Shown: piece after piece, positions 14,195 to 31,826 of the stretch
Numbering within the stretch: the stretch's first letter is position 1
Layout of the letters: each line of letters opens with the position of its first letter
NCBI GenBank assembly: GCA_902553945.1
Contig: CACDMT010000001.1
Coordinates: 7,239-71,238 of the forward strand
Reading direction: 5' to 3'
DNA length: 64,000 nt
Origin: an uncultured Alphaproteobacteria bacterium
Lineage (GTDB): Bacteria; Pseudomonadota; Alphaproteobacteria; HIMB59; GCA-002718135
The notes under the pieces: model-generated
What the model was told of the DNA's origin: nothing
Seen by the model: the letters and a program-made list of their open reading frames with translations, nothing else
The model's database searches: none
Program-made: the position numbers and the translations under genes

Positions 14195-15232
14195 ATGTTA
14201 AAAACTACAACTGTTGGAAGCTATCCAAGAAAAGATAAACCAAAAGATACATTAAGGAAACCTACAGTTAGTGAAAAAGAAGCTCTAGATATGGTTCAGT
14301 GGGCTGTTGAAGACCAGTGTAATATTGGTCTAGATTATATTACTGATGGTGAATCATATAGAGAAAATATGTATTGGTTCTATCAATTAAGAATTGATGG
14401 AGTAGATAGTGAAAATAAAAAATATAAACAATTTACAGTTGGGGGATCTACTGAAAATGTTGATTTATCTAAAGCTCATCCTTTAGTAAAAGAAAAAGGT
14501 GGATTTGGTATAGAGTGTGCAGTTGTAAATGATGAAATAAAAAATCAGAAATGGAATTTAGCTTCAAAATGGAAGAAGGCTCAAGATACTGCTGGTGACA
14601 GAGCTGTTGTAAAACAAACAATTACTGGACCTCATATGCTATCAAGATTTTCTGTTAACGAAAGAACTGATTTATATAGAAATGATACTGAATTGGCTTA
14701 TGCTTATGGTAAATGTATAAAAGACGAAATTGATCAATTACAACAATTAGGTTGTGAGAGAATTCAATTCGATGAACCTGTACTTACTGAATCTCCGGAT
14801 GAATGTGTATGGGCTGCTGATGTAATTAATGATATTGTTGATACATTTCCAAATATGTATTTTAGCCTTCATATATGTGGAGGAAACGCACATAGAAAAC
14901 GAGGTTATTTTGGAAAATATGATGATATGGTAGATGGTCTTAAAAAACTTAAAGTGCAAGAATTACATTTAGAACATTGTACTCTTCATTATAGTATGCT
15001 GGATGTTTTTGAAAAATATGATTTTAAAGGAAATATATCTTTTGGAGTTGTTGATCAAAGAACAGATGAACTTGAAAGTGTAGAAGAAGTTCATAAAAGA
15101 ATTAAGCCTGTTATTGAAAAGTTTGGAGCTGATAGAATTATTTTATCTAGTGAATGTGGCTTTGGTCACGTTCCTCTTGAAATTACTAGAGCAAAATTAT
15201 CAAGATTAGTTGAAGCTGCAAAAAAATATTAA
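14195..15232 (+). CDS. Stand-alone MetE C-terminal-domain-like protein (Meth_synt_2 / core-MetE family, Zn methyltransferase fold)
   Basis: 345 aa. TTVGSYPR N-terminus, ITDGE, LHICGGN and SSECGFGH motifs matching the His/Cys/Glu/Cys zinc site of cobalamin-independent methionine synthase catalytic domains. Confidence 0.7.
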   Translation: MLKTTTVGSYPRKDKPKDTLRKPTVSEKEALDMVQWAVEDQCNIGLDYITDGESYRENMYWFYQLRIDGVDSENKKYKQFTVGGSTENVDLSKAHPLVKEKGGFGIECAVVNDEIKNQKWNLASKWKKAQDTAGDRAVVKQTITGPHMLSRFSVNERTDLYRNDTELAYAYGKCIKDEIDQLQQLGCERIQFDEPVLTESPDECVWAADVINDIVDTFPNMYFSLHICGGNAHRKRGYFGKYDDMVDGLKKLKVQELHLEHCTLHYSMLDVFEKYDFKGNISFGVVDQRTDELESVEEVHKRIKPVIEKFGADRIILSSECGFGHVPLEITRAKLSRLVEAAKKY

Positions 15233-16236: not shown

Positions 16237-17334
16237 CTAAAAAATTGTTTTTTCAGTCTCCGCGTCAAAAAAATGTACTTTATTTGAGTCAATCTGAAAG
16301 TTAATTTTGTCTCCTACTTTTACATCCTTAGGATTATACATTCTGCTAATTATTTCTTTGTTTTTTATTGTAAAAAATAATTGAGTCTCTGTACCTAATG
16401 GCTCAGCTAAATTTATAGATTTTTGAAAACACCAGTTGCTATTAGTATAGTCACTCGTTTCTTTAGGCATAATATCCTCCGCTCTTATACCTAAATAAAT
16501 TTTATTTTTATTTTCTAATGAACTTTGAATTTTTTGAGGGCATTCTAGATTAATTTCATCATCTATTTTTATAATTAATTTATTTTCTTTTCTTATTACA
16601 TCGCCCTCAATAATATTCATTGGCGGACTTCCTATAAAAGTAGCAACAAATATATTTGCTGGCTTAGTAAAAACTTCAATAGGTGATCCAATTTGTTCAA
16701 TATAGCCATCTTTCATAATTATTATTCTATCAGCTAACGTCATAGCTTCAACTTGATCATGGGTAACATATATGATTGTTGTTTTAAGTTTTTGATGAAG
16801 TTTTTTAATTTCAGTTCTCATTTGTGTACGAAGTTTGGCATCTAAATTTGATAAAGGTTCATCAAATAAAAAAGCGTCAGGTCGTCTAACAATAGCTCTT
16901 CCCATTGCTACTCTCTGTCTTTGACCTCCAGATAATTGAGATGGCTTTCTTTTTCTTAACTCTTCTAAACCTAGTATCTGAACTGCATCTCTTACTCTTT
17001 TTTCAATTTCTTCTTTTTCAACTTTTGCAATTTTTAAACTAAATCCTAGATTTTCCTCTACAGTCATATGAGGATAAAGTGCGTAATTTTGAAAAACCAT
17101 CGATACATTTCTATCTTTAGGATCTTTTTCATTAACTAATTGATCTCTAATAAAAATCTCACCTCCACTAATTTCCTCTAATCCAGCAATCATTCTAAGT
17201 GTTGTAGATTTTCCACAACCTGAAGGCCCTACCAAAACTAAAAATTCATTATCTGAAATTGTTAAGTTCATGTTTTGAACAGCTATAACTTCACCATATT
17301 TCTTTGTTAAATTTTTTAGTTCAACTTTAGCCAT
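16237..17334 (-). CDS. Sugar ABC transporter ATP-binding protein (MalK/UgpC type)
   Basis: 365 aa. Walker A GPSGCGKST, signature LSGGQRQR, Walker B FLFDEPLS, C-terminal TOBE-like regulatory domain. Confidence 0.9.
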   Translation of the reverse strand: MAKVELKNLTKKYGEVIAVQNMNLTISDNEFLVLVGPSGCGKSTTLRMIAGLEEISGGEIFIRDQLVNEKDPKDRNVSMVFQNYALYPHMTVEENLGFSLKIAKVEKEEIEKRVRDAVQILGLEELRKRKPSQLSGGQRQRVAMGRAIVRRPDAFLFDEPLSNLDAKLRTQMRTEIKKLHQKLKTTIIYVTHDQVEAMTLADRIIIMKDGYIEQIGSPIEVFTKPANIFVATFIGSPPMNIIEGDVIRKENKLIIKIDDEINLECPQKIQSSLENKNKIYLGIRAEDIMPKETSDYTNSNWCFQKSINLAEPLGTETQLFFTIKNKEIISRMYNPKDVKVGDKINFQIDSNKVHFFDAETEKTIF

Positions 17335-17335
17335 A

Positions 17336-18175
17336 TTACCCTTTCACTCCTCCAAAAGTTAGCCCAGAAACCAAATGTTTTTGAACAATAAATGTTAGTA
17401 TCAACGCAGGTACGATCATGACTACAGCTATAGCACACATACCAGCCCAATTAATTGTAAATTCATCAAGATAATCCATCATTCCAATTGGTAAAGTTTT
17501 AGAATGAACAGTTCTAGTAATTATTGAAGCTAATGCGTATTCGTTCCATGAAAGTAGAAATGCAAAAATTGCTGCAGCTCCGATACCAGGCCCGGCAAGA
17601 GGTAATTCTACATTCCAAAAAGCTTGAAGTCTTGTGCATCCGTCTGTTCTGGCTACTTCAGACATTTCTTTTGGTATTTGTCTAAAAAAACCATCAGTTA
17701 ACCATATTGTGAAGGGAACATTCATTGCGACATAAACCAAAATAACTCCAAAAGATGTATTGATGATACCAAGTTTGGCAAATAATATAAATAAAGGTAA
17801 ACTTAGAGAAATTCCTGGTACAGCCCTGGCCAGCATTAGACCTAAAAATATTTTATTTTTACCTCTAAAGTTAAATCTTGCAAAAGCGTAACCGCCCATC
17901 ATGCCTATAGTAATAGCTATTACAGTACTAACAGATGATATAATTATAGAATTCATTAGATACTTAAAGGCAGGAACTGAAACATAACCATTAATACTAA
18001 ACATCTGAGTAAATTGATGAATTGTCCACCTGTCAGGAATCCAATTAGCAGGTTTTGATAAAATTTCTGGATTAGGCCTAAAGGCACTTACAAAAATCCA
18101 AATTCCTGGAAGACATATGAGTATTAGTAAAAAAAGGACTAAAAACCAAAAACTAATTTTTTTTATATGTTTCAT
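17336..18175 (-). CDS. ABC transporter permease (MalG type)
   Basis: 279 aa, 6 TM segments, EAA-type loop EVARTDGCTRLQAFWNVELPLAGPG. Confidence 0.85.
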   Translation of the reverse strand: MKHIKKISFWFLVLFLLILICLPGIWIFVSAFRPNPEILSKPANWIPDRWTIHQFTQMFSINGYVSVPAFKYLMNSIIISSVSTVIAITIGMMGGYAFARFNFRGKNKIFLGLMLARAVPGISLSLPLFILFAKLGIINTSFGVILVYVAMNVPFTIWLTDGFFRQIPKEMSEVARTDGCTRLQAFWNVELPLAGPGIGAAAIFAFLLSWNEYALASIITRTVHSKTLPIGMMDYLDEFTINWAGMCAIAVVMIVPALILTFIVQKHLVSGLTFGGVKG

Positions 18176-19065
18176 TATTGTTGTCCCAATTCTCTTCTAG
18201 CAGCTACAAGTTTTGTGAAGAAATAATAAGTAAAAGCAATAGATAAAATAATTGATACATAGGACATTGCATTTGCAAAGCCCATATTTGCATCTTTATA
18301 TCCGATCCTAGCAATCATAGTCCAAAGCAATTCAGTTCTCATAGCTGGACCTCCACCAGTCATAATGTGAACAATATCATAAGCTCTACCAACATCTAAA
18401 GATCTTATTGTTAAAGCAATAAAAACAAATGGCATTAGAAATGGTAAAGTAATGTTTTTAAAAACTTGCCAACTATTACAACCATCAACTCTTGCTGCTT
18501 CAATGGGATCTCGCGGAATTCCCAAAAGACCAGCTAATAATAAAATAGCAAAAATAGATGTATTTGCCCATATTTCCGCAACCATTATTGACCCCATTGC
18601 TAAGTACTTATCAATTAACCAAGGAATTGCAGACTCATAACCAAATAGATACAAAAAATTATTTAACAAACCTATGTTGTCATTAAAAATATATTTCCAT
18701 TGAAAACCAACTAAAATTGGAGAAAACATCATAGGAAACATCATAATTGTTCTTAAAGTTCTTTGGCCCCATGTTATTTTGTTAATTAACAATGCAATAC
18801 CAAGTCCAAATAACAATTCTAAATTAAGCACAACTGCTAAAAATAAAATAGTTCTACCAAAAGCATACCAAAACTTAGTATTATCTATTAATCTTTCATA
18901 ATTTCTGAAACCAACAAAATTAAAAAGGCTATCAGGTCTTGTAAGTTTATATGATGTAAAGCTGGTATAAAAAGAAAAAATTAGTGGTATTATTATTACA
19001 AACCCAATTGCCAATATAGAAGGCAAAAGTAGCATTATGGGGCTTCTTAAAATATTTCTGCCCAT
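18175..19065 (-). CDS. ABC transporter permease (MalF/UgpA type)
   Basis: 296 aa, EAA-type loop IEAARVDGCNSWQVFKNITLPFLMP. 1-bp overlap with the downstream permease. Confidence 0.85.
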   Translation of the reverse strand: MGRNILRSPIMLLLPSILAIGFVIIIPLIFSFYTSFTSYKLTRPDSLFNFVGFRNYERLIDNTKFWYAFGRTILFLAVVLNLELLFGLGIALLINKITWGQRTLRTIMMFPMMFSPILVGFQWKYIFNDNIGLLNNFLYLFGYESAIPWLIDKYLAMGSIMVAEIWANTSIFAILLLAGLLGIPRDPIEAARVDGCNSWQVFKNITLPFLMPFVFIALTIRSLDVGRAYDIVHIMTGGGPAMRTELLWTMIARIGYKDANMGFANAMSYVSIILSIAFTYYFFTKLVAARRELGQQ

Positions 19066-19068
19066 TAA

Positions 19069-20148
19069 TTATGAAACATAATCTATTTTTAATCCACCTG
19101 ATTGACTTGAGATACCGCAAGTATCAACAAGTGCCATAGTGTGAATTGAGTCATCAACAGATGTTATTAATTTATCATCTTCTCCATTTTTAAACCTTTG
19201 CATATTTGCCATTACTCCAATGAATGCATCTGGAAACCATTTACCTTGTATGTCAAATTTTATCCAATCAGTTCCCTCAGTAATAATTTCTAATTCTTCT
19301 GGCTCTCCATTTGGATAGTCTAATAATAAACCCAATTTCATTTTAACTGCTCCTTTGGTGCCCTCTAAACGTATATAAGCATCTTGATTTTTTCTTCCAA
19401 AACTATGAGTATGATTAATTGTCATACAACATCGAATTTGATCTCCGTAATTAAATATTGCACTTGTTCTACAATCAGCAAGTTCTTTTACTTTAGGATG
19501 TTTTACTGATTGGCAATAAAGACCTGTAGGATTTCCTAAAACAGAACGTATCCAATCAATATAATGAATAGAATGGAGTGGCACTTCAACTCGGTCTAAA
19601 GTTTTTAGAAAAGGCCATAACTCCCATGGTGTATGAACATTTACAAAAACTTCTAGCTCTACTAATTCACCCAAAAGATTTTGTCTAATTGCTTCATAAA
19701 CTGGGAGGGAAATTGGACTAAAACGTAATTGAAAATTCATACAAGCTTTGATATTTTTTTGATGACAAATTTTCCTAATTTTACTTCCTTCTTCTAGAGA
19801 TCTTCCTAGTGGTTTTTGAAAAACAGCATAAATATTATCAGGAAGTTTTTCGACAACCTCTAGTAAATTTGCTGGTGGTAACGCTAAATCAAACACACAA
19901 TTTTTATTTTGAAAACAATCATCAAATGAATCAAATACTTTATTAATACCAAATTCTTTAGCCAAACTTTTGGCTTTTTCTTTATCAACATCAAATAATC
20001 CTTCAACTTTTAAACCAGCTTTTTTGTATGCTGGAAGATGGGCATCTTTTACTATCCCTCCAGTACCTATAATTATAATTGGGCTTAATGTACTAGGCAT
20101 CGGCCAAGTTTGACTAAAATTTTTAATAATTTTTTCTTGATCTGTCAT
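19069..20148 (-). CDS. Gfo/Idh/MocA-family NAD(P)-dependent oxidoreductase
   Basis: 359 aa. N-terminal Rossmann-like IIIIGTGGIVKDAHLPAY and FQKPLG segment typical of this sugar dehydrogenase family. Confidence 0.65.
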   Translation of the reverse strand: MTDQEKIIKNFSQTWPMPSTLSPIIIIGTGGIVKDAHLPAYKKAGLKVEGLFDVDKEKAKSLAKEFGINKVFDSFDDCFQNKNCVFDLALPPANLLEVVEKLPDNIYAVFQKPLGRSLEEGSKIRKICHQKNIKACMNFQLRFSPISLPVYEAIRQNLLGELVELEVFVNVHTPWELWPFLKTLDRVEVPLHSIHYIDWIRSVLGNPTGLYCQSVKHPKVKELADCRTSAIFNYGDQIRCCMTINHTHSFGRKNQDAYIRLEGTKGAVKMKLGLLLDYPNGEPEELEIITEGTDWIKFDIQGKWFPDAFIGVMANMQRFKNGEDDKLITSVDDSIHTMALVDTCGISSQSGGLKIDYVS

Positions 20149-20167
20149 GTTAAAGAATAAATTTTTT

Positions 20168-20197
20168 AACTACCCCTCATTTACATGAGGAGTAGTT
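20168..20197 (-). promoter_or_regulatory. Stem-loop immediately after the binding-protein gene (intra-operon attenuator / stabiliser candidate)
   Basis: 13-bp inverted repeat aactacccctcat (20168-20180) / atgaggagtagtt (20185-20197) with one mismatch and a 4-nt loop. It lies between the SBP stop (20208) and the next gene start (20148). No U-tract follows. Confidence 0.45.
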
Positions 20198-20207
20198 TTG
20201 CAAGAGA

Positions 20208-21560
20208 TTAATAGTAACCTGCGTCTTGCATTAAATAGTCAGTTTCTTTTGCTGCATCGTCCAAAGCTTCCTTTACAGACTTATCTCCAACAATTGCTGC
20301 TTGCAATTCTGGAAATATAATATTTGAAAAAGGAATCCACTCAGGAATGAGCGGTGGAGTGAATGCATCTTCTGCCATTGAAGCAGAGAAGGTAGAGAAA
20401 AGATCACTCATAAAGGCATTACCTTCAGCGTCCATTTCTGATGCAATATCTTCCCAAACTCTAGTCATTGTAGGAAGTTTTCCACCTCTTGCTTCATGCA
20501 TTTGAGCTTCATGGTTTGTTAAAATCCATATTAAAGAAGCAGCGGCTTCTAAATTTTCCTCTGGGCAACCATTAAGGATAGAATAAGTGTGTGAGCCTGA
20601 CCAGCCACCTCTTTTTCCACCTGATCCCATAGGGAATCTGACTAAACCAACATCGCCTCCAATTTTAGAATCTTCACTGTTAAAGTAAGCTCCCCAGCCA
20701 CCCCAATCAAGATTAAGTGCAACAGTTCCACTTGCAAAACCAAGTCCGGTTTCATCCCAAAGGTAGTTTAAAACACCTGCAGGTACAGCTTGAGCATTAT
20801 ACAAATCAACAAACCATTGAAGAGCTCTTTGACCTGCCTCATCATTAAATACAGGTTTCCAATTTTCATCAAACAAAGCGCCACCTTCAGCAATTACTAG
20901 TTCATAAAAACGACCAGTGATAGCTTCTTCCTTACCAACATATTGTGTTCCGTAAAAGTTTGGTGGATCTGACCAAAAGATTGCTTGTTCTTTCCATTGT
21001 TCTAAAGTTTCAGGCGGAGCTAAATCATATCCGTACTCAGCTTTAAATCTTTTTTTATTATCTTCATCTTCATATATACTTTTAATATACCAAAGATTAC
21101 TAACATCACTATGTTGAGGTAGTTGTACTAAACGACCATCAACAGTTGAGTGATCTAGAACAAGTGGAACAAACTCCGCGAGAAAATCTTTTGGAACAAT
21201 TCCATTTAAATCTCTATAGATATCACCATATTGAGTTGCAAAACTAGTATGATTTGAAACTACACAGTAACTTATGTTACCTGCAGCAATATCTTGTTTT
21301 ATTTCTTTATCTAATTCAAAGTGACTTTTCTTAGATAAAATTGAAACCTTACCTCCAGTTTTTTCTTCCCAAATTGGAATCATAACTTCATAAAGTGGAT
21401 CGTAAGGAGCTCCACCGATAAGTTTTACATCTAGGGTAATTCCACTAAAATCCCCCCATACAGCAACTTTGTCATTTGAGAAATTTTTATCAACTGCAAA
21501 GGCACTTAATGGAAAAGATAATACTGAAATTGCAATTAGAATTTTTTTGAATAATTTCAT
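20208..21560 (-). CDS. Extracellular solute-binding protein, family 1 (sugar ABC SBP)
   Basis: The track ORF extends to 21602. The Met at 21560 (MKLFKKILIAISVLSFPLSAFA signal peptide) is preceded by GGAGG, so I prefer that start. About 450 aa, MalE/UgpB-like size. Confidence 0.8.
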   Translation of the reverse strand: MKLFKKILIAISVLSFPLSAFAVDKNFSNDKVAVWGDFSGITLDVKLIGGAPYDPLYEVMIPIWEEKTGGKVSILSKKSHFELDKEIKQDIAAGNISYCVVSNHTSFATQYGDIYRDLNGIVPKDFLAEFVPLVLDHSTVDGRLVQLPQHSDVSNLWYIKSIYEDEDNKKRFKAEYGYDLAPPETLEQWKEQAIFWSDPPNFYGTQYVGKEEAITGRFYELVIAEGGALFDENWKPVFNDEAGQRALQWFVDLYNAQAVPAGVLNYLWDETGLGFASGTVALNLDWGGWGAYFNSEDSKIGGDVGLVRFPMGSGGKRGGWSGSHTYSILNGCPEENLEAAASLIWILTNHEAQMHEARGGKLPTMTRVWEDIASEMDAEGNAFMSDLFSTFSASMAEDAFTPPLIPEWIPFSNIIFPELQAAIVGDKSVKEALDDAAKETDYLMQDAGYY

Positions 21561-21736
21561 ATTTCCTCCAATAATAAGAGAGATATTACACGCTATCCTC
21601 AAATTTAAAAGCTAAATTTATATACAATATTGAAAAAAATAATGAAAAAATATAGTTGAGATGTATTTTTAAGTTGATTATTTTAATTACTTTATTTTTA
21701 AATTAGATTTTAATTAATTATTTATAGAGGTATGAC

Positions 21737-22066
21737 ATGAATACAAAAAGATATGCAATGGCAGTCAGGCTAAAAGATGAAAAAAGAGATTTTTATATTA
21801 AAAATCATGCAAATGTATGGCCTGAAATACTTGAAGAATTAAAAAAAGTTAATGTCAAAAACTATAGTATATATTTGAAAGAAGATTTTATGTTTGGTTA
21901 TTTAGAATACGTCGGCAATGATTTTGATGGAGATATGGCTACAATGCAAAAAATTCCAATAGTTGATAAATGGACAAAACTAATGATTGATTGTTTTAAC
22001 CCTTTTCCAAATAATGAAGACAACGAGTCTTGGGTAATGATGGATGAAATATTTCATCTAGATTAA
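21737..22066 (+). CDS. rhaM: L-rhamnose mutarotase family protein (RhaM/DUF718)
   Basis: 109 aa. KRYAMAVRLKDEK...Y.KNHANVWPE...NYSIYL...GYLEY pattern characteristic of rhamnose mutarotase. Confidence 0.75.
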   Translation: MNTKRYAMAVRLKDEKRDFYIKNHANVWPEILEELKKVNVKNYSIYLKEDFMFGYLEYVGNDFDGDMATMQKIPIVDKWTKLMIDCFNPFPNNEDNESWVMMDEIFHLD

Positions 22067-22078
22067 TTAAAGAAAAAT

Positions 22079-23254
22079 ATGTCTAAAATAAAAGATATTG
22101 AGGTATTTTTTTTAGAATATCCTTTCCCAAAAAAACTTGGCTATAAGTATAGTGGCGGTCTTGTAGAGAACATGATTGTTGCTATTATTAAAATTACTGA
22201 CTCTAATGATAATTATGGAATTGGAGAAATTACTCATGGTCAATTTACCCATGAACCAATTATTGGTCTAACCAAACATTTTAGAGATATGCTTGTTGGA
22301 TCTGATACTAATAACATAAATCAAACTTGGGAAAAAATGTATGGATCAAGTGTTTTTTGGAATAGAGAAGGTATTGGTATTGGTGTCATGGGTGGCATCA
22401 ATATAGCCTTATATGACTTATTAGGTAAAAATTTAAAAGTACCAGTATATCAATTAATTGGAGGATTAAATAAAACCAAAATTAGAATTTACGCAAGTAA
22501 CGGTCTTTTTGATAACAAAGATCAACTAATAGAAGATGCTCAGAAAGCTTATAATTTAGGATTTAGGATTTATAAAATGAGAGTTGTTGAACCTTCTTCA
22601 ATTATTGAACTGGTACATGCATTTAAAAAAGAATTTAAAAGTAAAATGGACTTAATAGTTGATGCGGTACAAGGCTCTACTTCAAATCCCTGGGCAACAA
22701 AAGTATCGATAAACATTGCTAAAAAACTTGAAGATTACGAAGTATTATTTTTTGAAGAGCCTTGTAGGGTTGAAAATTTAGATGGATACAAAGAGATTAA
22801 AAATAATACCAATTTAAATATTGCTGGTGCTGAAAGTATACCTACAGCGAGAGCATTTAAGCCTTATTTTGAAAATAATGTATTTGATGTTGTACAATTT
22901 GATATTGCGACTTCTGGTTTTACTGAAGGAAGAAGAATTGCTGACATGGCATATGTGTACAACAAACCTTTAGCGATACATTCATGGGGGAGTGCTATTA
23001 GTATAATGGCTGGAATACATTTTAGTTTGAGTATACCAAACGCAGCATTTACTGAATATTGTTTCATGGATCACCCAATCAATCAAAGTTTATTTGAAAA
23101 TGAAACAATAAATATTTCAAACGGATATATTGAGCCGCCTAAAACTTATGGTTTGGGAATTAAATTTGATGAAAATCTTACTAAAGAGTTTCCATATAAA
23201 GAAAAAATTAATACAATGATATTAACAGATAAAGAAGATATAGGATTAAAGTAA
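22079..23254 (+). CDS. Enolase-superfamily acid-sugar dehydratase (mandelate racemase/MLE family), paralog 1
   Basis: 391 aa. ALYDLLGKNLKVPVYQLIGG, metal-ligand contexts IVDAVQG / FFEEPCR / IAGAES, QFDIATSGFTEG and AIHSWGS (His-Asp dyad contexts). Confidence 0.8.
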   Translation: MSKIKDIEVFFLEYPFPKKLGYKYSGGLVENMIVAIIKITDSNDNYGIGEITHGQFTHEPIIGLTKHFRDMLVGSDTNNINQTWEKMYGSSVFWNREGIGIGVMGGINIALYDLLGKNLKVPVYQLIGGLNKTKIRIYASNGLFDNKDQLIEDAQKAYNLGFRIYKMRVVEPSSIIELVHAFKKEFKSKMDLIVDAVQGSTSNPWATKVSINIAKKLEDYEVLFFEEPCRVENLDGYKEIKNNTNLNIAGAESIPTARAFKPYFENNVFDVVQFDIATSGFTEGRRIADMAYVYNKPLAIHSWGSAISIMAGIHFSLSIPNAAFTEYCFMDHPINQSLFENETINISNGYIEPPKTYGLGIKFDENLTKEFPYKEKINTMILTDKEDIGLK

Positions 23255-23257
23255 GTC

Positions 23258-23689
23258 ATGGATATTAAGTTTATTGAAACACCAAGCCCCATTGGAAATT
23301 TTGTTAATGCAAGGTTGAGCGGTAAATATGCTTATATATCTGGTCAAGGACCATTTGATGATAATGGAAATTTAATAACTGGAAAAGTTGGAAAAGATTT
23401 AAATCAAGAAGAAGCATATGATGCTGCAAGAAGAGTTGGAATTACTATCCTATCAGTAATTAAAAATGATATTGGTTTTGAAAAAGTAAAAAAAGTTGTC
23501 AAAATACTTGGGTTGGTTAATTGTACGGTAGATTTTTTAACCCAACCAAAAGTTATAAATGGTTGTTCTGATTTATTTGTTGAATTTTTTGGCAAAGAAA
23601 AGGGCATGCACGCAAGAAGTGCTATGGGTGTTTATGTTTTGCCCAATAATATACCAGTAGAAATTGAAGCAATTATAGAATTAGTCTAA
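23258..23689 (+). CDS. RidA/YjgF/UK114-family reactive-intermediate (enamine/imine) deaminase
   Basis: 143 aa. YISGQGP, ARSAMGV..LP..IPVEIEAI C-terminal signature of the family. Confidence 0.8.
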   Translation: MDIKFIETPSPIGNFVNARLSGKYAYISGQGPFDDNGNLITGKVGKDLNQEEAYDAARRVGITILSVIKNDIGFEKVKKVVKILGLVNCTVDFLTQPKVINGCSDLFVEFFGKEKGMHARSAMGVYVLPNNIPVEIEAIIELV

Positions 23690-24889
23690 CCAACCAAGCC
23701 ATTCTTTTTTTGATTTAGCAAGATACTCATCCAAAGATATATTACTTTTAATTTTTTTTAAAATTAGATTATTAATAATTTTTTTAAATTCTAACATTAC
23801 AATTTTTTCCTGACCTTTTTTTAAATTACATGTATCCAACTCAAAGTGATTAAAGTGGATCAAATCATCACGAACAAAAATTGCTGGATCATTTTTTTCT
23901 AAATGAAATGCCAAGGATTGGATCGTATATTGGGATTTTTTTGAGTCAACATAAATTCTAAGTCTATTAATTTTATTACCTGTTGGGTCAGCAACAACCT
24001 CAAAAGAGATACCTTTAAATTTTTCTTTAGACAAAAATTTCAACCAATATTGTAAAATGTTATTTTGATTATTAATTTCTAAATCCCAATTTCTGTTATA
24101 CCAATTTTCAACACCAATTATTGCAGAATAAATAGATTCTTTACCTACTTTCATACCTCTACCAATACCTAAATTTTGAAGATAAATGTTTTTGATAAAT
24201 TTTTTCTTACCTGCAATTATTCCAGCTGTTAAAGATCCCATAAATTTATGTGCACTAAAAATTGCAACATCAGCACCAATTTTAAAAAAATCTTCCATAT
24301 ACTCCTCTGATGCTGCATCAATAATAACAGGTATTTTATTTTTTTTGCAAATTTTAATGAAAGAATTTAATTCTAGTGAATCATAATCAGAACAATGATG
24401 TGATACAACGTACATAGCACAAGCAATTTGTTTTTTATTTTTTGAAATTGTTTTTTCAATATTTTCTATCGTACAAAATTTTTTAAAACCACATTTTAGT
24501 ATCTTGGCACCAGAAAGTTTAATTCCCTGCTCTACTTCAGCTCCATAATTTGTAAGATGACCTCTTTGAATTAAAACTTTATTTACCATATTATTGGTGT
24601 CTGGAAGTTTAAAAACTTTCTTTAGATCTTTACCAGTCATCATACTGGCAACACTTTCTGTTAGCCCCCCAGCTGCAGAAGCAGTAATGACGGCAGCTTC
24701 TGTTTTAAGTAATTTAGAAATTCTTTGTGATGCTAAAGCTTGCAATTCATCTATATTAACAAAATATTCAAAAATATCATTAGCAGCTTTAATCGATTTT
24801 TTATTGGTAATTGAAGCACCAATTTTTGTCATAAATCCACTGACATTGATGACAGGTGTAAGATTATTTTTATTATAAAAATTTTTCAC
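23681..24889 (-). CDS. SelA-like PLP-dependent enzyme (DgaE / D-glucosaminate-6-phosphate ammonia-lyase-like, COG1921)
   Basis: 402 aa. PVINVSGFMTKIGAS N-terminus and FSAHKFMGSLTAG (S-x-x-K-x-x-G PLP-lysine context as in SelA). No tRNA-binding N-domain. 3' end overlaps the convergent RidA gene by 9 bp. Confidence 0.6.
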   Translation of the reverse strand: MKNFYNKNNLTPVINVSGFMTKIGASITNKKSIKAANDIFEYFVNIDELQALASQRISKLLKTEAAVITASAAGGLTESVASMMTGKDLKKVFKLPDTNNMVNKVLIQRGHLTNYGAEVEQGIKLSGAKILKCGFKKFCTIENIEKTISKNKKQIACAMYVVSHHCSDYDSLELNSFIKICKKNKIPVIIDAASEEYMEDFFKIGADVAIFSAHKFMGSLTAGIIAGKKKFIKNIYLQNLGIGRGMKVGKESIYSAIIGVENWYNRNWDLEINNQNNILQYWLKFLSKEKFKGISFEVVADPTGNKINRLRIYVDSKKSQYTIQSLAFHLEKNDPAIFVRDDLIHFNHFELDTCNLKKGQEKIVMLEFKKIINNLILKKIKSNISLDEYLAKSKKEWLGWLD

Positions 24890-24943
24890 TTTATTATTTT
24901 AAATATGCAATATCAGCTTATAATACATTATATATAATTAAAT

Positions 24944-26113
24944 ATGAAAATTACTGATGTAGAAACATATGTTCTTTTAGCGGATAACTATGATCCAAGT
25001 CTAACATCTTCAGCTCAAGATACATGTTTGGTAATTATAAAAACAGATGAAGATATAGAAGGTTATGGTGAATGTGATACTAGTCCTTGGGTTGCAAAAG
25101 CTTTTATTGAATCTCCTGGCACTCATACGATGGATCAATGTGTAAAAGAAATTTTGATTGGCTCAGATCCTCTTGATATAGATACATTGTGGGAAAAAAT
25201 TTATGTGGGATCAGCAATGACAGGTAGAAGAGGTGCTGGAGTAAATGCAATTAGTGCAATTGATATGGCGCTTTGGGATATAAAAGGCAAAGCCGAAAAC
25301 AAACCTGTATTCGAATTGTTAGGTGGAAAAAAACAAGAAGAGGTAATTCCCTATGCTTCACTTCAACCTGTTGGACATTCCTTTCAAGAATATAAAGACT
25401 CACTTGTTGCTTGGGCAGAAAAAGCAAAGGGTTTAGGTTTCAAAGCAGTAAAATCAGAAGTAACACTTAACGGACCTTATGCACATAGTGGTCTTCACGA
25501 GGAAGATGATAAAACAACTGAAGTTGTTGCTGCAGTAAGAAAAGCTTTAGGTCCAGAAATTAAATTAATGATTGATGTGCAGTATAGATGGAAAAATGCA
25601 GAAGAAGCTCTTCGTACAGTCAAGGACTGGGCAGAATATGATATTTATTTTTTAGAAACACCTGTTTGGACAGATGATATAAAAAGTTATGCAAGGATGC
25701 ATGATGAAGCGCCAATGAAAATAGCTGCTGGAGAATGGTTAAGTACAAGATATGAATTTGAAGATTTAATTATTAATGGAAAGATTGATGTAGCACAACC
25801 TGATGTTGGAAGATGTGGTGGATTGAGTGAAGCTAAAAAAATAGCAAAATTTTCGCAAGAACATAAAAGGATCATCGTTCCACATTGTTGGAAAACTTCT
25901 GTTTCTATTTCTGCTACAGCTCATTTTGCATTCAATACTGAAAATTGTGCATTTATAGAATATTTGCCACCACAACTTTGTGTTGAAATTTTGCGAAAAG
26001 AACTTGCAACTGAGGGTTTTGATTTTGTTAATGGAAAAATAACACCTCCTACAAAACCAGGTCTTGGCATAACTCTAAATAGGGATGCTATAAAAAAATA
26101 CCAAGTAGCTTAA
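24944..26113 (+). CDS. Enolase-superfamily acid-sugar dehydratase (MR/MLE family), paralog 2
   Basis: 389 aa. ALWDIKGKAENKPVFELLGG, MIDVQYRW / FLETPVW / IAAGEW metal-ligand contexts, AQPDVGRCGGLSEA and VPHCW. Confidence 0.85.
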   Translation: MKITDVETYVLLADNYDPSLTSSAQDTCLVIIKTDEDIEGYGECDTSPWVAKAFIESPGTHTMDQCVKEILIGSDPLDIDTLWEKIYVGSAMTGRRGAGVNAISAIDMALWDIKGKAENKPVFELLGGKKQEEVIPYASLQPVGHSFQEYKDSLVAWAEKAKGLGFKAVKSEVTLNGPYAHSGLHEEDDKTTEVVAAVRKALGPEIKLMIDVQYRWKNAEEALRTVKDWAEYDIYFLETPVWTDDIKSYARMHDEAPMKIAAGEWLSTRYEFEDLIINGKIDVAQPDVGRCGGLSEAKKIAKFSQEHKRIIVPHCWKTSVSISATAHFAFNTENCAFIEYLPPQLCVEILRKELATEGFDFVNGKITPPTKPGLGITLNRDAIKKYQVA

Positions 26114-26982
26114 TTTAAAATTTTAAACTCAACAGCTGCTTCAAAAGATTTCTTAGGATTTAAGATTTTTAATCCGTGATAAGCTTTACTATTTTTCATG
26201 ACTAAGAAAGAGTCTCTAATATTAGTAACCGGCTCAATGCAAAAAAAATTTTCTCTAGGTGGAGAATAAACATGAAGATTTCCAACATTTTTTTTATTAA
26301 TAATTTCTAATTTAATATGTTTATTTAAAATCAATTTTGACCTTCCATTCCATTTAAGAAAAGTTTCATCAATTTTTGTTTTATTCAAATCAAGACTTTT
26401 ACTGTTTATCATTTCTTTTATATTAAATTTATTTATCTTTGTTTGATTTAAATAAGAAAATGTATTTGAGAATATTTTTGAATCTTTACTAATGGTAAAC
26501 CAAGGATGAAACCCAATTCCACAATGAAACTTTGATTTATCTAAGTTGATAATCTTTAATCTAATAATTAATGAGTCTTTAGTAAGATTAAAAGTTTGTA
26601 TAGACTGATACTTGAAAGGAAAACTATTTTTACCATTATGTAAAAATTCTAAAACTAAAATATTTTTAGTATTTTTTTTTACTTTCCATTTATTAACCCA
26701 ACCTTCACCATGTATTGTATCAGGTTCAAGTATATGTGTTCTAGGTAAATTAATATATTTATCTTTATAAAAAAAAGTTTTTTTATGAATTGCACCAAAA
26801 TAAGGAATGGTCGCAAAATAACCAGAAAAATAACAATTATATTTTCCTTGTCTCTTTTTAAGTGGAAAACTTCTAAAAATATTTGTTTTCTTTTCTTTAT
26901 CAATAAATCTTAAGATACTTGCTCCCATATTTGGAGATATCTCCAAAAGTAGTTTTTTATTTTCTAAAATTTTTTGCGACAT
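26110..26982 (-). CDS. Aldose 1-epimerase (galactose mutarotase) family protein
   Basis: 290 aa. HGEGWVNKW, GIGFHPWF and FCIEPVT motifs match the epimerase HG..W / HP.F / EP pattern. TAATG junction with the upstream gene. Confidence 0.7.
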   Translation of the reverse strand: MSQKILENKKLLLEISPNMGASILRFIDKEKKTNIFRSFPLKKRQGKYNCYFSGYFATIPYFGAIHKKTFFYKDKYINLPRTHILEPDTIHGEGWVNKWKVKKNTKNILVLEFLHNGKNSFPFKYQSIQTFNLTKDSLIIRLKIINLDKSKFHCGIGFHPWFTISKDSKIFSNTFSYLNQTKINKFNIKEMINSKSLDLNKTKIDETFLKWNGRSKLILNKHIKLEIINKKNVGNLHVYSPPRENFFCIEPVTNIRDSFLVMKNSKAYHGLKILNPKKSFEAAVEFKILN

Positions 26983-27854
26983 TAAGATATTTTATAATTA
27001 CTATAAGGGATTTTCAATCCTTTATAATTTGTTTTTATTATTAAACTTTGACCTGAATATTTATATTTTTTTTGTAAAATTTTAGAAGTACCCAATTTTG
27101 CAGTTGTAATAAATAGATAATTTAACTCTTTACCAAAAAATGTGATGCTAGTTATATTATATGCTGGTAATTTTATTTCTTTATCAATTTTTTTAGTTTT
27201 TAAATCAATTCTTGTAATTTTAGCACCAGACCAATGTGCTACCCACAATCCATTATTATTATCAAGAGCTATTCCATCTGGTATTCCTTGATTTTTTTTA
27301 TACTTAATCAAAATATTTTTTTTGTTAGTTTTTAAATTATAAGTTAAAATTTTTGAACTTAACGAGTCCGAAAAATATAAATTTTTTTCAAATTTATCTA
27401 ATGCCGGTCCATTTGATACTTTAAATCCCCTGTCAATAACTATAAATTTTTTCTTATATAAATATCCAAAATATCCTAAATTTTTATTTTCTTTAAGATG
27501 AGACAAACCGATCCACAATTTTTTATCTGAAATTAAACCATCATTGTAAGAAATATTTTTTAATTCATTACTTTTTCTAATATCAATAAATTTTTTTACT
27601 TTTTTAGATTTTCTATTAAATATATATAATCCATCAAAAGCACTTATTATAAATAATCCATTATTATGTGGGTATACATTTCCTAGAGGCTTTGGTAGAT
27701 CAAGTTTTTGTTGAGTTAATTTTCTATTTCCAATTGAATAAAAAAAAATTGATGGTTTTAAAAGATCTAAAAAAACAATCTCATTAGTTTTGTAAAGATA
27801 AAAACCACTCTCTCCTAAAATAGTATTGGACTCAACAGCATCAAAATCAAACAT
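26982..27854 (-). CDS. SMP-30/gluconolactonase/LRE-like lactonase (copy 2, extremely AT-rich)
   Basis: 290 aa. SNGPALD, PDGIALDNNNGLWVAHWSGAKITRID propeller-blade motifs. Confidence 0.65.
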   Translation of the reverse strand: MFDFDAVESNTILGESGFYLYKTNEIVFLDLLKPSIFFYSIGNRKLTQQKLDLPKPLGNVYPHNNGLFIISAFDGLYIFNRKSKKVKKFIDIRKSNELKNISYNDGLISDKKLWIGLSHLKENKNLGYFGYLYKKKFIVIDRGFKVSNGPALDKFEKNLYFSDSLSSKILTYNLKTNKKNILIKYKKNQGIPDGIALDNNNGLWVAHWSGAKITRIDLKTKKIDKEIKLPAYNITSITFFGKELNYLFITTAKLGTSKILQKKYKYSGQSLIIKTNYKGLKIPYSNYKIS

Positions 27855-27918: not shown

Positions 27919-28926
27919 TTAATTAGAAGCTTTTACTTCGTTCCAAACTCTATTACGCCATTCGAAATCCTCAGCTGGTTGTAGCCAATTTAATCTACCT
28001 GCATAATCTAAGCCAGGAGACTCATGAGTAACAGTTCCATATCCATATCTCTCATTCATTACTTCTTGAGTAGATTTTTCTATGAAAAAATTTGCCCAAG
28101 CGTGTGCAAGTTCTTCATCAGCACCTGCAGTCATTGCCCAAGTATCAAGCCATCCAATTCCACCTTCTTTAGGAATAATGTATTTAACATTATGTCCCAT
28201 ATCTCTTAGAGCCACTTCCTGGAATTCACCCATAGAGAACATTAGTGAAATTCCTCCACTATCCCATATTTGATTACCTTCATCAAAACCAGCAAAGTAA
28301 GTAACTACTAATTTTTTTTGATCAATCAGCGTTTGTTTTACATTTTCCATTTCAGCTTCAGATAAGTTATAAGGATTGTTCATACCAAGGTATATTGCTG
28401 TATTAACAATATTATTATTAGTATCATCTAATACAATCATTTTACCTGCATTTGCTGGATCGTGCATTACAGACCATGAGTCAACTCCGCCTTCACCAAA
28501 TTCATCAACATCATAAATTAGTCCTAATGAACCCCAAGAAATAGGAACACCATAATAACCGCCATCAATTTCAACTTCTTTTACGTTTTGAAAAGCTGAC
28601 ATAAGACCACTAAAATTACTTAACTTACTTTTGTCATAAGGTTTTAGTAATCCTGCTCCATGATATCGTGGAAATAAACTTGTATCAATTGATACTAAAT
28701 CAAAATCTTCACCCTTACTTGCTTGTGTTAAAGCAAATAATTCATCAACACTTCCAACATATTTAACTTTAACTTTTGCATCATATTTAGCTTCAAATTC
28801 ATCTATCCATTCTTGTTCAGCATATCCTTCAAAACACCCAAGGCTTAATTCTCTTGCAGCGCTTGCAGAAAATGCAAACGAAAAAATAAAGATAAATGAT
28901 AAAATTGAATAAATAAATTTTCTCAT
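27919..28926 (-). CDS. Periplasmic binding protein of the PotD/PotF (polyamine-type) family
   Basis: 335 aa with signal peptide MRKFIYSILSFIFIFSFAFSASA. GYYGVPISWGSLGLIYD and GWLDTWAM segments typical of spermidine/putrescine-type SBPs. Confidence 0.8.
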   Translation of the reverse strand: MRKFIYSILSFIFIFSFAFSASAARELSLGCFEGYAEQEWIDEFEAKYDAKVKVKYVGSVDELFALTQASKGEDFDLVSIDTSLFPRYHGAGLLKPYDKSKLSNFSGLMSAFQNVKEVEIDGGYYGVPISWGSLGLIYDVDEFGEGGVDSWSVMHDPANAGKMIVLDDTNNNIVNTAIYLGMNNPYNLSEAEMENVKQTLIDQKKLVVTYFAGFDEGNQIWDSGGISLMFSMGEFQEVALRDMGHNVKYIIPKEGGIGWLDTWAMTAGADEELAHAWANFFIEKSTQEVMNERYGYGTVTHESPGLDYAGRLNWLQPAEDFEWRNRVWNEVKASN

Positions 28927-29113: not shown

Positions 29114-30181
29114 ATGAGTGAAATTTTAGAGTTAAAAAATGTTTCAAAACAATATGGAGAGACAAAAGTTTTAGATAATATTAATTTTAAAATTAATAAT
29201 AATGAATTCTTTACAATTTTAGGATCAAGCGGATCAGGTAAGTCTACAATAATACGAATGATAGGTGGTTTTACAAAACCTTCGGCAGGTGAAATAATTT
29301 ATGAGAATAATATTATTAACGATGAACCAATTTTTAATAGACCATTTAACACAGTATTTCAAGATTACGCATTATTTCCAAATATGAATGTTTTTGATAA
29401 TGTTGGATTTGGACTTAAAATAAAAAATATAAATAAAGGTGAGATAGAAAAAAAAGTCTTAGATGTTTTAGCAGTTGTAGGCTTAGAAAATTTTTCAAAA
29501 AGAATGCCTCAAGAATTATCAGGAGGCCAACAACAACGAGTTGCACTGGCAAGAGCTATTATTTGTGAACCTAAAATTATTTTATTAGATGAACCCCTTG
29601 GTGCTCTTGATGCAGAATTACGAAAACAAATGCAATTATTTTTAAAAGAAATTCAGAAAAAAATTCAAATTACTTTTATATTTATTACTCATGATCAAGA
29701 AGAGGCTATATTTTTATCAGATAGAATAGCCGTCCTAAATAAACATAAATTTGAACAAATAGGTTCGCCAAAAGATTTATACTATTCACCACAAACAACC
29801 TATATGGCAAAATTTTTTGGAGAATGTAATTTAATTAATTGTAGTGTCATTAATGAAGATTCAAAATCTGTAAAAGTTAGCTCTAAATTTGGTAATTTTG
29901 TTATACCTAACAACGCTACTCTAAATCGTGATTTAGATTTTGTTTATGGAATTAGGCCTGAAGAAGTAAAACTAGTAGCTAAAAATGAAAATAGTATGAG
30001 GGTCAAAATTAGAGATATAAGCTTTAAAGGATCTACATCAACAATTAATGCAACAAATGAAAATGAAGATGCGTTATTAAAGATTCAGAATATTAGTTCA
30101 AATATTTCACAATCATTATCTGTAGGCACCTATATTGATGTTGAATTTAATACTGAATTTGGAAGTATTTTTACTGAATGA
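29114..30181 (+). CDS. ABC transporter ATP-binding protein (PotA type)
   Basis: 355 aa. Walker A GSSGSGKST, LSGGQQQR, ILLDEPLG, C-terminal TOBE-like domain. Confidence 0.9.
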   Translation: MSEILELKNVSKQYGETKVLDNINFKINNNEFFTILGSSGSGKSTIIRMIGGFTKPSAGEIIYENNIINDEPIFNRPFNTVFQDYALFPNMNVFDNVGFGLKIKNINKGEIEKKVLDVLAVVGLENFSKRMPQELSGGQQQRVALARAIICEPKIILLDEPLGALDAELRKQMQLFLKEIQKKIQITFIFITHDQEEAIFLSDRIAVLNKHKFEQIGSPKDLYYSPQTTYMAKFFGECNLINCSVINEDSKSVKVSSKFGNFVIPNNATLNRDLDFVYGIRPEEVKLVAKNENSMRVKIRDISFKGSTSTINATNENEDALLKIQNISSNISQSLSVGTYIDVEFNTEFGSIFTE

Positions 30182-31029
30182 ATTCTATATCAAATTATTT
30201 TAATACATCTATCTGGACAATAGTTAGTTTTGTCTTAGTTATTTTTTTAATTCTAATACCTCTTGCTTCTTTTTTATCTTATTCTTTTTTCACAGTTGAT
30301 GGGACAGATATTATTCATGAATTTAGTTTATTTAATTTTAAAGAATTTTTTGTTGATGAAATATATATACGTACTTTCGTAAGAACTATTTTTCTTGCAA
30401 TTATTGTAATGACATGTTGCATCATACTTGGCTACCCTGTTGCATTTTTTTTAGCTAGATATGCCGGTAGATATAAGTATGCCATTCTTCTGATGCTCAT
30501 AATTCCACTTTTTATGAGCTACATAATTAAAATTTACATGATGAGATCGATATTGGGTTATTCTGGACTAATCAATAAAGTTCTAGCAATGGCAGGTTTA
30601 ATTGATAAACCACTAGAATTTTTTTTATGGAATCAAAATTCAGTTATTATAACACTTGTTATAATTTTATTGCCTTTAATAATTATTCCAACTTTTACTT
30701 CTTTGGATAAAATTCCACAAAATATAGTTGAGGCATCTTTTGATTTAGGGTGTAAACCCTTTCAAGCTTTTAAATATATTATATTGCCAATTAGTTTCCC
30801 TGGTCTTGTTGTAGGAAGTATTTTTGTATTTATTTTAGCTCTTGGTGATTTCGTAACACCTCAGTTAGTTGGTGGTACATCAGGATTTACTTATGGTAAA
30901 ATAATATACAGTAATTTTGGGATGGCATTTAATTGGCCATTTGGTGCAGCACTTGCTAGTGTTTTATTATTTGTGTCTGTAATTATTATTTTATTAACTA
31001 ATTATCTAACTAAAAGATTGAACAAATGA
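30178..31029 (+). CDS. ABC transporter permease (PotB type)
   Basis: 283 aa, 6 TM segments, EAA-type loop EASFDLGCKPFQAFKYIILPISFPG. ATGA overlap on both sides. Confidence 0.85.
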   Translation: MNSISNYFNTSIWTIVSFVLVIFLILIPLASFLSYSFFTVDGTDIIHEFSLFNFKEFFVDEIYIRTFVRTIFLAIIVMTCCIILGYPVAFFLARYAGRYKYAILLMLIIPLFMSYIIKIYMMRSILGYSGLINKVLAMAGLIDKPLEFFLWNQNSVIITLVIILLPLIIIPTFTSLDKIPQNIVEASFDLGCKPFQAFKYIILPISFPGLVVGSIFVFILALGDFVTPQLVGGTSGFTYGKIIYSNFGMAFNWPFGAALASVLLFVSVIIILLTNYLTKRLNK

Positions 31030-31826
31030 CCAGATCAGAAAATTACACTAAATATCTTTTAGCTTGTTTAACTGGTTTAATAGTAGCTGCATTATATGCA
31101 CCAATAGTTTTAACAATCTTTTATTCTTTTTATAAATCAAGAAAAGGAAAGGTGGACTGGGGTTCTTTTTCTTATGAGCCATATACAAAATTAATATTTG
31201 AAAGACAGATATTAGAATCCTTAATGAACTCAATTTATGTGGGTGTGGTCACAGTAATTTGTTCTGTAATTATTGGTTTTTATTTTGCAAACTATTACCA
31301 TACGAGTAAAAGCAAAATGAAAGAATTTTTGCAGTTTATTATCTTTCTTCCCTTTTTATTACCACCAATTATAACAGGTTTATCACTCCTGATATTTTTT
31401 AGAGAAATAAATCTTCCAAGATCCTTAAATACTGTTGTAATTGGTCATACAATATTTGTTCTAGCAATAGTATTTAAAATTATTTTAAATAAGTTAGAAA
31501 CTCTTAAACCTTCTTTAATGGAGTCTGCGTACGATTTAGGAGCAAGTAAATGGCAGGCATTTTATTATGTTTTACTTCCAAACATTAAATTATCTCTAAT
31601 AATAGCAGGACTTTTAGCATTTACTATTTCATTAGATGAAACTTTAATCACATTATTCTTGATTGGAAATGACACTACTTGGCCAATAAAACTCTGGGCA
31701 AAAATGAGGGTAGGATTTTCTAAACAAGTCAATGCTTCAGTAACATTAATATTGATACTAACATCATTATTAGTATTATTAATAGCAAGTATAATATCAA
31801 GATCTGAAAGAAAAATAATGTATTGA
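31026..31826 (+). CDS. ABC transporter permease (PotC type)
   Basis: 266 aa, EAA-type loop ESAYDLGASKWQAFYYVLLPNIK. Confidence 0.85.
   Translation: MTRSENYTKYLLACLTGLIVAALYAPIVLTIFYSFYKSRKGKVDWGSFSYEPYTKLIFERQILESLMNSIYVGVVTVICSVIIGFYFANYYHTSKSKMKEFLQFIIFLPFLLPPIITGLSLLIFFREINLPRSLNTVVIGHTIFVLAIVFKIILNKLETLKPSLMESAYDLGASKWQAFYYVLLPNIKLSLIIAGLLAFTISLDETLITLFLIGNDTTWPIKLWAKMRVGFSKQVNASVTLILILTSLLVLLIASIISRSERKIMY

Follow-up and report, generated by a model that had tools for sequence, protein, structure and literature searches.

A long-form DgaE-like PLP enzyme and its Rid1-type partner: a candidate amino-sugar-acid deamination module in a SAR11-type sugar-acid island

Background

Can SAR11-type bacteria deaminate oxidised amino sugars? 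The question is raised by a 64,000-nucleotide stretch of DNA from an uncultured alphaproteobacterium (contig CACDMT010000001.1, positions 7,239 to 71,238; assembly GCA_902553945.1), referred to here as the window, in which a gene for a 402-amino-acid (aa) enzyme dependent on pyridoxal 5'-phosphate (PLP) converges on a gene for a 143-aa Rid-family protein. Descriptions of SAR11-type bacteria generally credit them with little carbohydrate catabolism, and amino sugars make up a large reservoir of dissolved organic carbon and nitrogen in the sea. The G+C content of the window was about 29%, and its nearest named relatives were metagenome-assembled genomes of Pelagibacteraceae and single-cell genomes of Alphaproteobacteria; on this basis the label SAR11-type is a reasonable one, though short of proof.

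An earlier note, made from the sequence alone, had proposed that the PLP enzyme, described as SelA/DgaE-like, belongs to an amino-sugar-acid deamination module together with a RhaM mutarotase, an enolase-superfamily dehydratase and RidA. The four open reading frames (ORFs) were found in the ORF map exactly as described, with the same coordinates and strands, including the 9-bp overlap (ttagtctaa) that holds the stop codons of the PLP enzyme and Rid genes. The analysis presented here leads to a smaller unit: we consider it somewhat probable that the enzymes encoded at 23681-24889 and at 23258-23689 act together as a two-part deamination module, with a glucosaminate- or galactosaminate-type 2-amino-2-deoxy-aldonic acid as substrate.

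A PLP enzyme of the DgaE family

The 402-aa protein matched TIGR01437, the model of the DgaE family, with 277.9 bits (E 1e-82; residues 4-372 aligned to model positions 1-363; cut-off 385.3 bits), and matched NF047797, the DgaE equivalog model, with 220.7 bits (cut-off 600). The most similar solved structure by sequence was that of DgaE, the Salmonella ammonia-lyase for D-glucosaminate-6-phosphate (PDB 7lc0), with an E-value of 2e-50 and 29% identity over 371 residues. When an AlphaFold2 model of the protein (mean predicted local distance difference test score 88) was compared with known structures using Foldseek, 7lc0 again ranked first, followed by Cap15 (8t7j) and then SelA. By these comparisons the protein is a clear homologue of the DgaE family that lies beyond the curated TIGR01437 boundary. 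The orthologues are labeled in RefSeq only as 'aminotransferase class V-fold PLP-dependent enzyme'.

The lysine of the FSAHKFMGS motif, to which the earlier note had drawn attention, is K215 and was aligned to the PLP lysine of DgaE in the same S-x-x-K context. H164 and H165 (motif SHHC) correspond to His162 and His163 of DgaE, which are strictly conserved, and of which His163 is the proton donor to C3 (PMC9529869). Three arginines of DgaE, Arg301, Arg332 and Arg346, have been proposed to form a cluster that binds the 6-phosphate of the substrate (PMC9529869). The first two are kept in the 402-aa protein as R309 and R340, and C354 stands where DgaE has the third, which leaves the cluster incomplete. 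All of these residues (K215, H164/H165, R309, R340 and C354) were invariant in an alignment reaching down to 40% identity. The codon for C354 lies at about 23828-23830 on the minus strand, 139 residues from K215 in the protein. In cysteine desulfurases, for example SufS, the catalytic cysteine lies at a similar distance from the lysine.

A separate long-form subfamily

Homologues from a search of 1.84 billion cluster representatives were tabulated at the key columns, and two forms of the protein were apparent. The short forms, which include DgaE and Cap15, are about 365-378 aa long, show the pattern SHH...R...R...DPR and lack a C-terminal tryptophan. The long forms, at about 395-410 aa, have a C-terminal extension with a conserved terminal tryptophan, and within them the clade of the window protein reads D[PT]CN, with an invariant Cys-Asn replacing the DPR arginine of the short forms. 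In a neighbor-joining tree, which carried no bootstrap support and was poorly resolved at its deep nodes, the short forms made up a clade apart from the long forms, and the DPCN sequences fell into two or three neighbouring groups rather than a single clean clade. Relative to DgaE, the window protein is about 30 residues longer at the C-terminus, where it carries the conserved tryptophan, and its clade has lysine or arginine at the position of Arg226 in addition to the cysteine at that of Arg346.

Because the NF047797 score is so far below its cut-off, because the long forms make up a distinct clade, and because a cysteine replaces Arg346, the 402-aa protein is, judged by its sequence, a member of a separate long-form subfamily and not a DgaE orthologue. 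The identity given in the earlier note therefore held in its DgaE-like part, both by sequence and by fold, and fell short of DgaE itself. Long-form lyases were found by a pattern scan of species-representative genomes to have at least 577 confirmed matches, and 194 plasmids in PLSDB, mostly from Rhizobium, carried one.

A Rid1-type partner linked to the long form

The nearest solved structures to the 143-aa protein were 3d01, PA0814 and ACIAD3089. Its active-site arginine is kept in the motif HARSAMG and was aligned to the arginine of these three proteins and of PH0854. PA0814 and ACIAD3089 belong to the Rid1 subfamily and are imine/2-aminoacrylate deaminases in vitro (PMC5619798), and the conserved arginine (Arg105 of Salmonella RidA) is needed for imine hydrolysis (PMC4433059). 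RidA proper was rejected, with 37 bits against TIGR00004 (cut-off 106.25). Going by its nearest characterised relatives, the protein is Rid1-like and of the imine-hydrolysing type; the name RidA used in the earlier note was right about the family and the catalytic arginine and wrong about the subfamily. The protein is predicted to hydrolyse the 2-imino-3-deoxy acid released by the lyase. The substrates of PA0814 and ACIAD3089 in vivo are unknown (PMC4433059), whereas here a conserved linkage implies a specific PLP-enzyme partner.

This linkage was measured in the best 80 loci, taking one genome per GTDB species. A close Rid homologue was found within 2.5 kb of the long-form lyase gene in 53 of the 80 loci, with the two genes directly adjacent in 20, and in 41 of the 55 loci that had at least 3 kb of flanking sequence on each side. 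The earlier note had named a lack of such linkage as a point that would count against its proposal. The linked pair occurred in several phyla; its carriers included SAR11-type bacteria, Rhizobiales, Rhodobacterales, Rahnella, Scandinavium, Bordetella, Paraburkholderia and Methylomirabilota, among others. Outside SAR11 the two genes were mostly co-directional. Short-form DgaE genes were found either with a sigma-54 activator, a mannose-type phosphotransferase system (PTS) and a DgaF-type aldolase, or with DUF4310-4312 and that aldolase, and in neither context with Rid. Since the short-form contexts lack Rid, the linkage is specific to the long form, and it is far beyond chance.

The neighbours of the long-form gene also included ATP-binding cassette (ABC) transporters of the SBP_bac_5, SBP_bac_3 or SBP_bac_1 type, and frequent companions were a cog3964 amidohydrolase and an IclR regulator. 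In some clusters the pair was found with enzymes that could use its product. One cluster with the Rid/lyase pair (L010) has genes for Eda and a PfkB kinase upstream of the transporter genes. In a marine gammaproteobacterial single-cell genome (L066), permeases, amidohydrolase, ATPases, Rid, IclR, PfkB, lyase and Eda are encoded in one block. The presence of a PfkB kinase and an aldolase for 2-keto-3-deoxy-6-phosphogluconate (KDPG) in these two clusters fits a 2-keto-3-deoxy-hexonate product. PfkB was also found in the same cluster as the long-form lyase in L011, and in relatives of 54% identity (L007) genes for an aldolase, a short-chain dehydrogenase/reductase (SDR), an SGL-type lactonase and a NagB/Pgl-family (Glucosamine_iso) protein lie beside the transporter, Rid, GntR and lyase genes.

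Outside SAR11 the cog3964 amidohydrolase is often encoded in an operon with Rid and the lyase (5339-6562 in L074, 4401-5531 in L066 and 6234-7445 in L010). It is orthologous to PDB 2ogj (622 bits). Atu3266 has esterase activity, and we know of no physiological substrate for the cog3964 amidohydrolase; its gene context suggests an N-acyl amino-aldonate. A minimal operon was found on plasmid p42e of Rhizobium etli CFN42 (L095, 374136-381260), which encodes a substrate-binding protein, two permeases, a 'RidA family protein', the long-form lyase and a fused ATPase. The Rid/lyase pair of this plasmid has the locus tags RHE_RS25815/25820. 2-Aminogluconate is a constituent of the lipid A of Rhizobium, which might be where the substrate comes from in nature.

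Arrangement in SAR11-type genomes

Ten SAR11-type loci (L001-L006 and L012-L015), from relatives of 70-95% identity, were compared with the window. A stable core was apparent, consisting of a gene for a 389-aa enolase-superfamily protein, the lyase gene diverging from it across a spacer of 46-54 bp, and the convergent Rid gene. The 389-aa enolase gene adjoined the lyase gene in L001-L006, L012, L013 and L015, and the 9-bp Rid/lyase overlap of the window was also present in L001-L006 and L012, of which L001 and L012 are relatives of 78% identity. L013 has the lyase/enolase pair in inverted orientation, with the enolase between Rid and the lyase, and in L014 about 5 kb separate the enolase from the lyase, and the ends of the Rid and lyase genes do not overlap. 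An aldose 1-epimerase and an SGL lactonase stay beside the enolase/lyase pair in L002, L005, L006, L012, L013 and L015.

L002 and L005 lacked the second enolase-superfamily gene, encoding the 391-aa protein, at its place between Rid and RhaM. In L012, L013 and L015 the lyase/enolase block was inverted relative to RhaM, and the position of RhaM relative to the lyase was variable. The trio of RhaM, the 391-aa enolase and Rid, which the earlier note had treated as a unit, was therefore ruled out as a fixed unit by synteny and is one of several arrangements; the constant enolase gene, at 24944-26113, lies past the segment that the earlier note had covered. The 391-aa enolase was present or absent even among relatives of 78% identity, which together with the inverted blocks points to frequent local rearrangement within the region.

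An association of lyase and enolase was also found in two other alphaproteobacterial loci (L045, 9986-15428, and L041, 10010-15395), where the genes of a polar-amino-acid ABC system precede that of the lyase and an enolase-superfamily gene is found downstream at a distance of about 3 kb. L045 has no Rid and has a molybdopterin oxidoreductase between lyase and enolase, and in L041 a Rid gene lies about 0.9 kb upstream of the lyase. The association therefore recurs outside SAR11.

Proposed deamination pathway

In the SAR11-type loci the lyase and Rid genes lie among genes for a lactonase, an aldose epimerase, dehydrogenases and enolases resembling acid-sugar dehydratases. From this setting we infer a route in which an amino sugar would be imported by ABC transporters, its anomers would be equilibrated by the mutarotases or the aldose 1-epimerase, C1 would be oxidised to give a lactone by the Gfo/Idh/MocA or SDR dehydrogenase, and the lactone would be opened by an SGL lactonase to give an amino-aldonate. 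The PLP enzyme would then form the external aldimine at K215, remove the alpha proton, eliminate the 3-hydroxyl, protonate C3 via H165 as in DgaE, and release a 2-imino-3-deoxy acid. This predicted lyase step is the best supported of the pathway, by homology and by the residues retained. The Rid1-type protein would hydrolyse the imine to a 2-keto-3-deoxy acid and ammonium, a step supported by the linkage and by the biochemistry of the family, and KdgK and Eda may then cleave the product. The enolase-superfamily dehydratases could carry out the equivalent step on aldonates that are not aminated.

An unphosphorylated substrate is somewhat more likely, because of the cysteine in place of Arg346, import by ABC transporters instead of a PTS, and lactonases of the SGL type, which usually act on unphosphorylated lactones. 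A 6-phosphate substrate stays an alternative on account of the two arginines that are retained and of the kinases linked to the pair.

Several observations weigh against this pathway. Eda and the KdgK-like kinase, which the earlier note had correctly placed in the same island, are encoded about 20 kb from the lyase/Rid pair, and no deacetylase gene was found in the window. No Rid was nearby in 14 of the 55 loci with full flanks. Most Rhizobiales operons contain transporters of the dipeptide or amino-acid type and no kinase or aldolase nearby, and the substrate class could therefore be another beta-hydroxy amino acid. The 402-aa protein scores below the cut-offs of both NCBIfam models, and its family is not functionally uniform: Cap15, the second-best structural match, is an O2- and PLP-dependent enzyme according to its PDB title. 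In the literature, no assay of any member of the long-form clade was found. What the earlier note had called amino-sugar-acid deamination is thus backed by the catalytic residues, the Rid linkage and the kinase and aldolase genes of L010 and L066; for the substrate and its phosphorylation state we can offer only inference.

Alternative explanations

One alternative, unlikely in our judgment, is that the enzyme is a genuine DgaE orthologue whose substrate, D-glucosaminate-6-phosphate, is made by a kinase and not by a PTS, with KDPG passing straight to Eda. The invariance of R309 and R340, two of the three proposed phosphate binders, would agree with this, as would the PfkB kinases linked to the pair in L010, L011 and L066, the one in the window, and the Glucosamine_iso gene beside the cluster in L007. 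However, the position of Arg346 is an invariant cysteine throughout a clade that is set apart by its C-terminal extension, whereas the short forms retain the arginine, and the NF047797 score is little more than a third of what that model requires. Neither a PTS permease nor a PF07071 (DgaF-type) aldolase was found among the annotated ORFs of the window, which consequently does not have an operon of the DgaABCD/DgaF kind; the kinase of the window scores best as KdgK, and the lactonases are of the SGL type.

A somewhat less probable explanation is that the PLP lyase acts on a beta-hydroxy or D-amino acid other than a sugar acid, perhaps derived from an N-acyl or peptide-like compound, and that the neighbouring enolase is a racemase or epimerase. 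Outside SAR11 the usual partners are ABC systems of the Dpp type (SBP_bac_5) or polar-amino-acid type (SBP_bac_3), the cog3964 amidohydrolase and MlrC, the operon on R. etli p42e consists only of an ABC system, Rid and the lyase, and the enolase superfamily includes amino-acid racemases, to which there were weak NCBIfam matches. Such transporters are nevertheless compatible with amino-aldonates, which are themselves alpha-amino acids. Furthermore, a kinase and a KDPG aldolase share the operon in L010 and L066, all neighbours in the SAR11-type loci are sugar-oxidation genes, and the 389-aa enolase scores best against acid-sugar dehydratases.

Chemistry other than that of a lyase on an amino-sugar derivative, such as that of a Cap15-like O2-dependent PLP oxidase or decarboxylase, appears very improbable. 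The rank of 8t7j as second-best match by both structure and sequence indicates that the fold supports other reactions, but Cap15 reads SRH where DgaE and the window clade read SHH, it sits in the short-form clade, and an eliminase that releases an imine would suit both the Rid linkage and the catabolic contexts.

Selenocysteine synthase (SelA) or another tRNA-dependent enzyme, suggested by a weak PF03841 match (30.6 bits) and by names from older automatic annotation, for example 'L-seryl-tRNA(Ser) selenium transferase', is effectively refuted: SelA structures were matched only with E-values of about 2e-6, compared with 2e-50 for DgaE, TIGR00474 gave 35.2 bits against a cut-off of 267.9, the lyase falls in a different clade from SelA, and no selB/selD-like or other sel genes were found among the annotated ORFs of the window, in which the sole tRNA identified by an Rfam scan was Leu(CAA) and not selC. 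Residue 7 of the query pairs with residue 66 of the 452-aa Aquifex SelA, and the N-terminal tRNA-binding domain is therefore absent, as the earlier note had stated. What is shared with SelA is a distantly related PLP core of fold type I (Foldseek E of about 1e-16, 17-18% identity).

Locus map and surrounding island

The features of the locus and of the wider island are collected in Table 1. The lyase ORF starts with GTG, at the same position as in its homologues. The spacer between the lyase and the 389-aa enolase contained only weak promoter-consensus matches, no more of them than shuffled sequence, and a promoter/terminator scan of 21500-26300 found no terminator-like site.

Table 1. Coordinates of the lyase/Rid locus and of associated island features in the window
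Feature	Position	Strand	Evidence and remarks
Eda-type aldolase for KDPG/2-keto-4-hydroxyglutarate (KHG)	1460-2011	-	PF01081; TIGR01182 153.3 bits (cut-off 156.05)
KdgK-like PfkB kinase	2001-2912	-	PF00294; NF052444 (KdgK) 225.9 bits (cut-off 400)
SBP_bac_1-type ABC system	16237-21602	-	Binding protein 20208-21602; syntenic in L001, L003, L004, L013, L014, L015
Gfo/Idh/MocA oxidoreductase within the SBP_bac_1-type ABC system	19069-20148	-	Putative alternative uptake/oxidation route
RhaM-family mutarotase, 109 aa	21737-22066	+	PF05336 96.5 bits
Enolase-superfamily protein, 391 aa	22079-23254	+	MR_MLE_N/C; accessory island gene, variably present
Rid1-type Rid-family protein, 143 aa	23258-23689	+	PF14588 and PF01042
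Convergent 3'-end overlap of Rid and lyase genes, 9 bp	23681-23689		ttagtctaa; both stop codons inside
Long-form DgaE-family (SelA-like) PLP enzyme, 402 aa	23681-24889	-	TIGR01437 E 1e-82; predicted 2-amino-2-deoxy-aldonate ammonia-lyase
AT-rich spacer between lyase and 389-aa enolase genes, 54 bp	24890-24943		Presumed shared promoter region of the two genes
Enolase-superfamily protein, 389 aa	24944-26113	+	MR_MLE_N/C; divergent from lyase gene; presumed acid-sugar dehydratase
Aldose 1-epimerase	26110-26982	-	PF01263
SMP-30/gluconolactonase-type (SGL) lactonase	26982-27854	-	PF08450
PotD-like ABC system	27919-28926 (binding protein); 29114-31826 (ATPase and permeases)	- (binding protein); + (ATPase and permeases)	SBP_bac_8
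SDR, glucose-1-dehydrogenase subfamily	31831-32604	+	NF005559 221.5 bits (passes cut-off of 215)

The RhaM-family protein scored 50 bits against TIGR02625, below the cut-off of 99.6, which places it in the family without fixing its specificity. The best NCBIfam match of the 389-aa enolase was galactonate dehydratase (191.9 bits; cut-off 311), and its best PDB match was 3sjn (E 5e-69), a structure of unknown function; that of the 391-aa enolase was 5olc (E 6e-43). Solved structures assigned no function to either enolase, as only unannotated structural-genomics entries or weak dehydratase matches were returned. The PotD-like ABC and SDR block was syntenic in L001, L002, L005, L006, L012 and L013. 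The nearest solved structures to its binding protein were polyamine binders only (E of about 1e-17), which are uninformative on the substrate.

The region at 1460-39228, about 38 kb, is one large carbohydrate/sugar-acid island. It encodes three enolase-superfamily proteins, two SGL lactonases, three ABC systems, Eda, KdgK and two CoA-transferases, as well as an L-fucono-lactonase-like amidohydrolase, a GT41/TPR protein and GalE/GalT-like proteins. No homologues of the cog3964 deacetylase, an OngC-type deaminase, NagB/Pgl, GntR or IclR were found in the window. A 345-aa protein (14195-15232) resembles cobalamin-independent methionine synthase solely in the latter's C-terminal, catalytic domain; its gene adjoins that of an NAD-dependent epimerase inside the island, a pairing kept in L001 and L003. 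A 339-aa ORF (5501-6520) between the two CoA-transferase genes had no Pfam or NCBIfam match. The core genes argH, lysA, tyrA, obg and proB come after the island. The tRNA-Leu(CAA) gene (41183-41267) and an HNH endonuclease gene (42891-43445) lie 2-4 kb past the island end at 39228 and may mark its boundary or an integration site.

Comparison with known systems

The enzyme in the window is predicted to share the chemistry of DgaE, beta-elimination of water followed by deamination to a 2-keto-3-deoxy acid. The gene contexts differ, as the long form is found with an ABC transporter and Rid, in contrast to the sigma-54/PTS/DgaF operon of DgaE.

A proven route for N-acetylglucosaminate from oxidised chitin in Pseudoalteromonas consists of OngB (deacetylase), OngC (deaminase), OngD (an essential RidA) and KdgK (PMC9537276). 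The pathway logic is the same as that proposed for the window: unphosphorylated 2-aminogluconate is converted to 2-keto-3-deoxygluconate (KDG) by a PLP enzyme with an essential Rid-family partner, and a KDG kinase follows. The single-cell genome locus L066 reproduces the full Ong-type gene set, with amidohydrolase, Rid, PfkB, lyase and Eda. However, OngC is a fold-type III, D-serine-deaminase-like enzyme that is not homologous to the long-form lyase, OngB is a D-aminoacylase and not a cog3964 enzyme, and the window has no deacetylase, GH20 or lytic polysaccharide monooxygenase (LPMO) gene.

These comparisons allow a broader proposal, which we put forward tentatively and with less than even confidence. 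The long-form clade with cysteine in place of Arg346 may be a distinct ammonia-lyase for unphosphorylated 2-amino-2-deoxy-aldonates, working as an obligate pair with Rid1. It would join PTS-linked DgaE and the fold-type III enzyme OngC as a third solution of independent origin, and would complete a SAR11-type oxidative route, not dependent on a PTS, from amino sugar through lactone and amino-aldonate to 2-keto-3-deoxy acid.

Conclusions

The earlier note had considered this capability undescribed in SAR11-type genomes, and the open-access literature yielded no paper that connects SAR11 with glucosaminate. Oxidised amino sugars are probably a food source for these SAR11-type cells. If the module for amino-aldonate deamination in the island of about 38 kb does work, it would widen the known substrate range of SAR11-type bacteria, and if the broader proposal is true, amino sugars or the products of their oxidation would be able to supply very abundant ocean bacteria with both carbon and nitrogen. 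The pair of long-form DgaE-like enzyme and Rid1 protein is widespread. A function for the pair would supply a physiological partner to the Rid1 proteins and the Atu3266-type amidohydrolases, whose natural substrates are unknown, and, if true, would for the first time assign a physiological role to the Rid1 proteins and to the Rhizobiales amidohydrolases of the cog3964 type.

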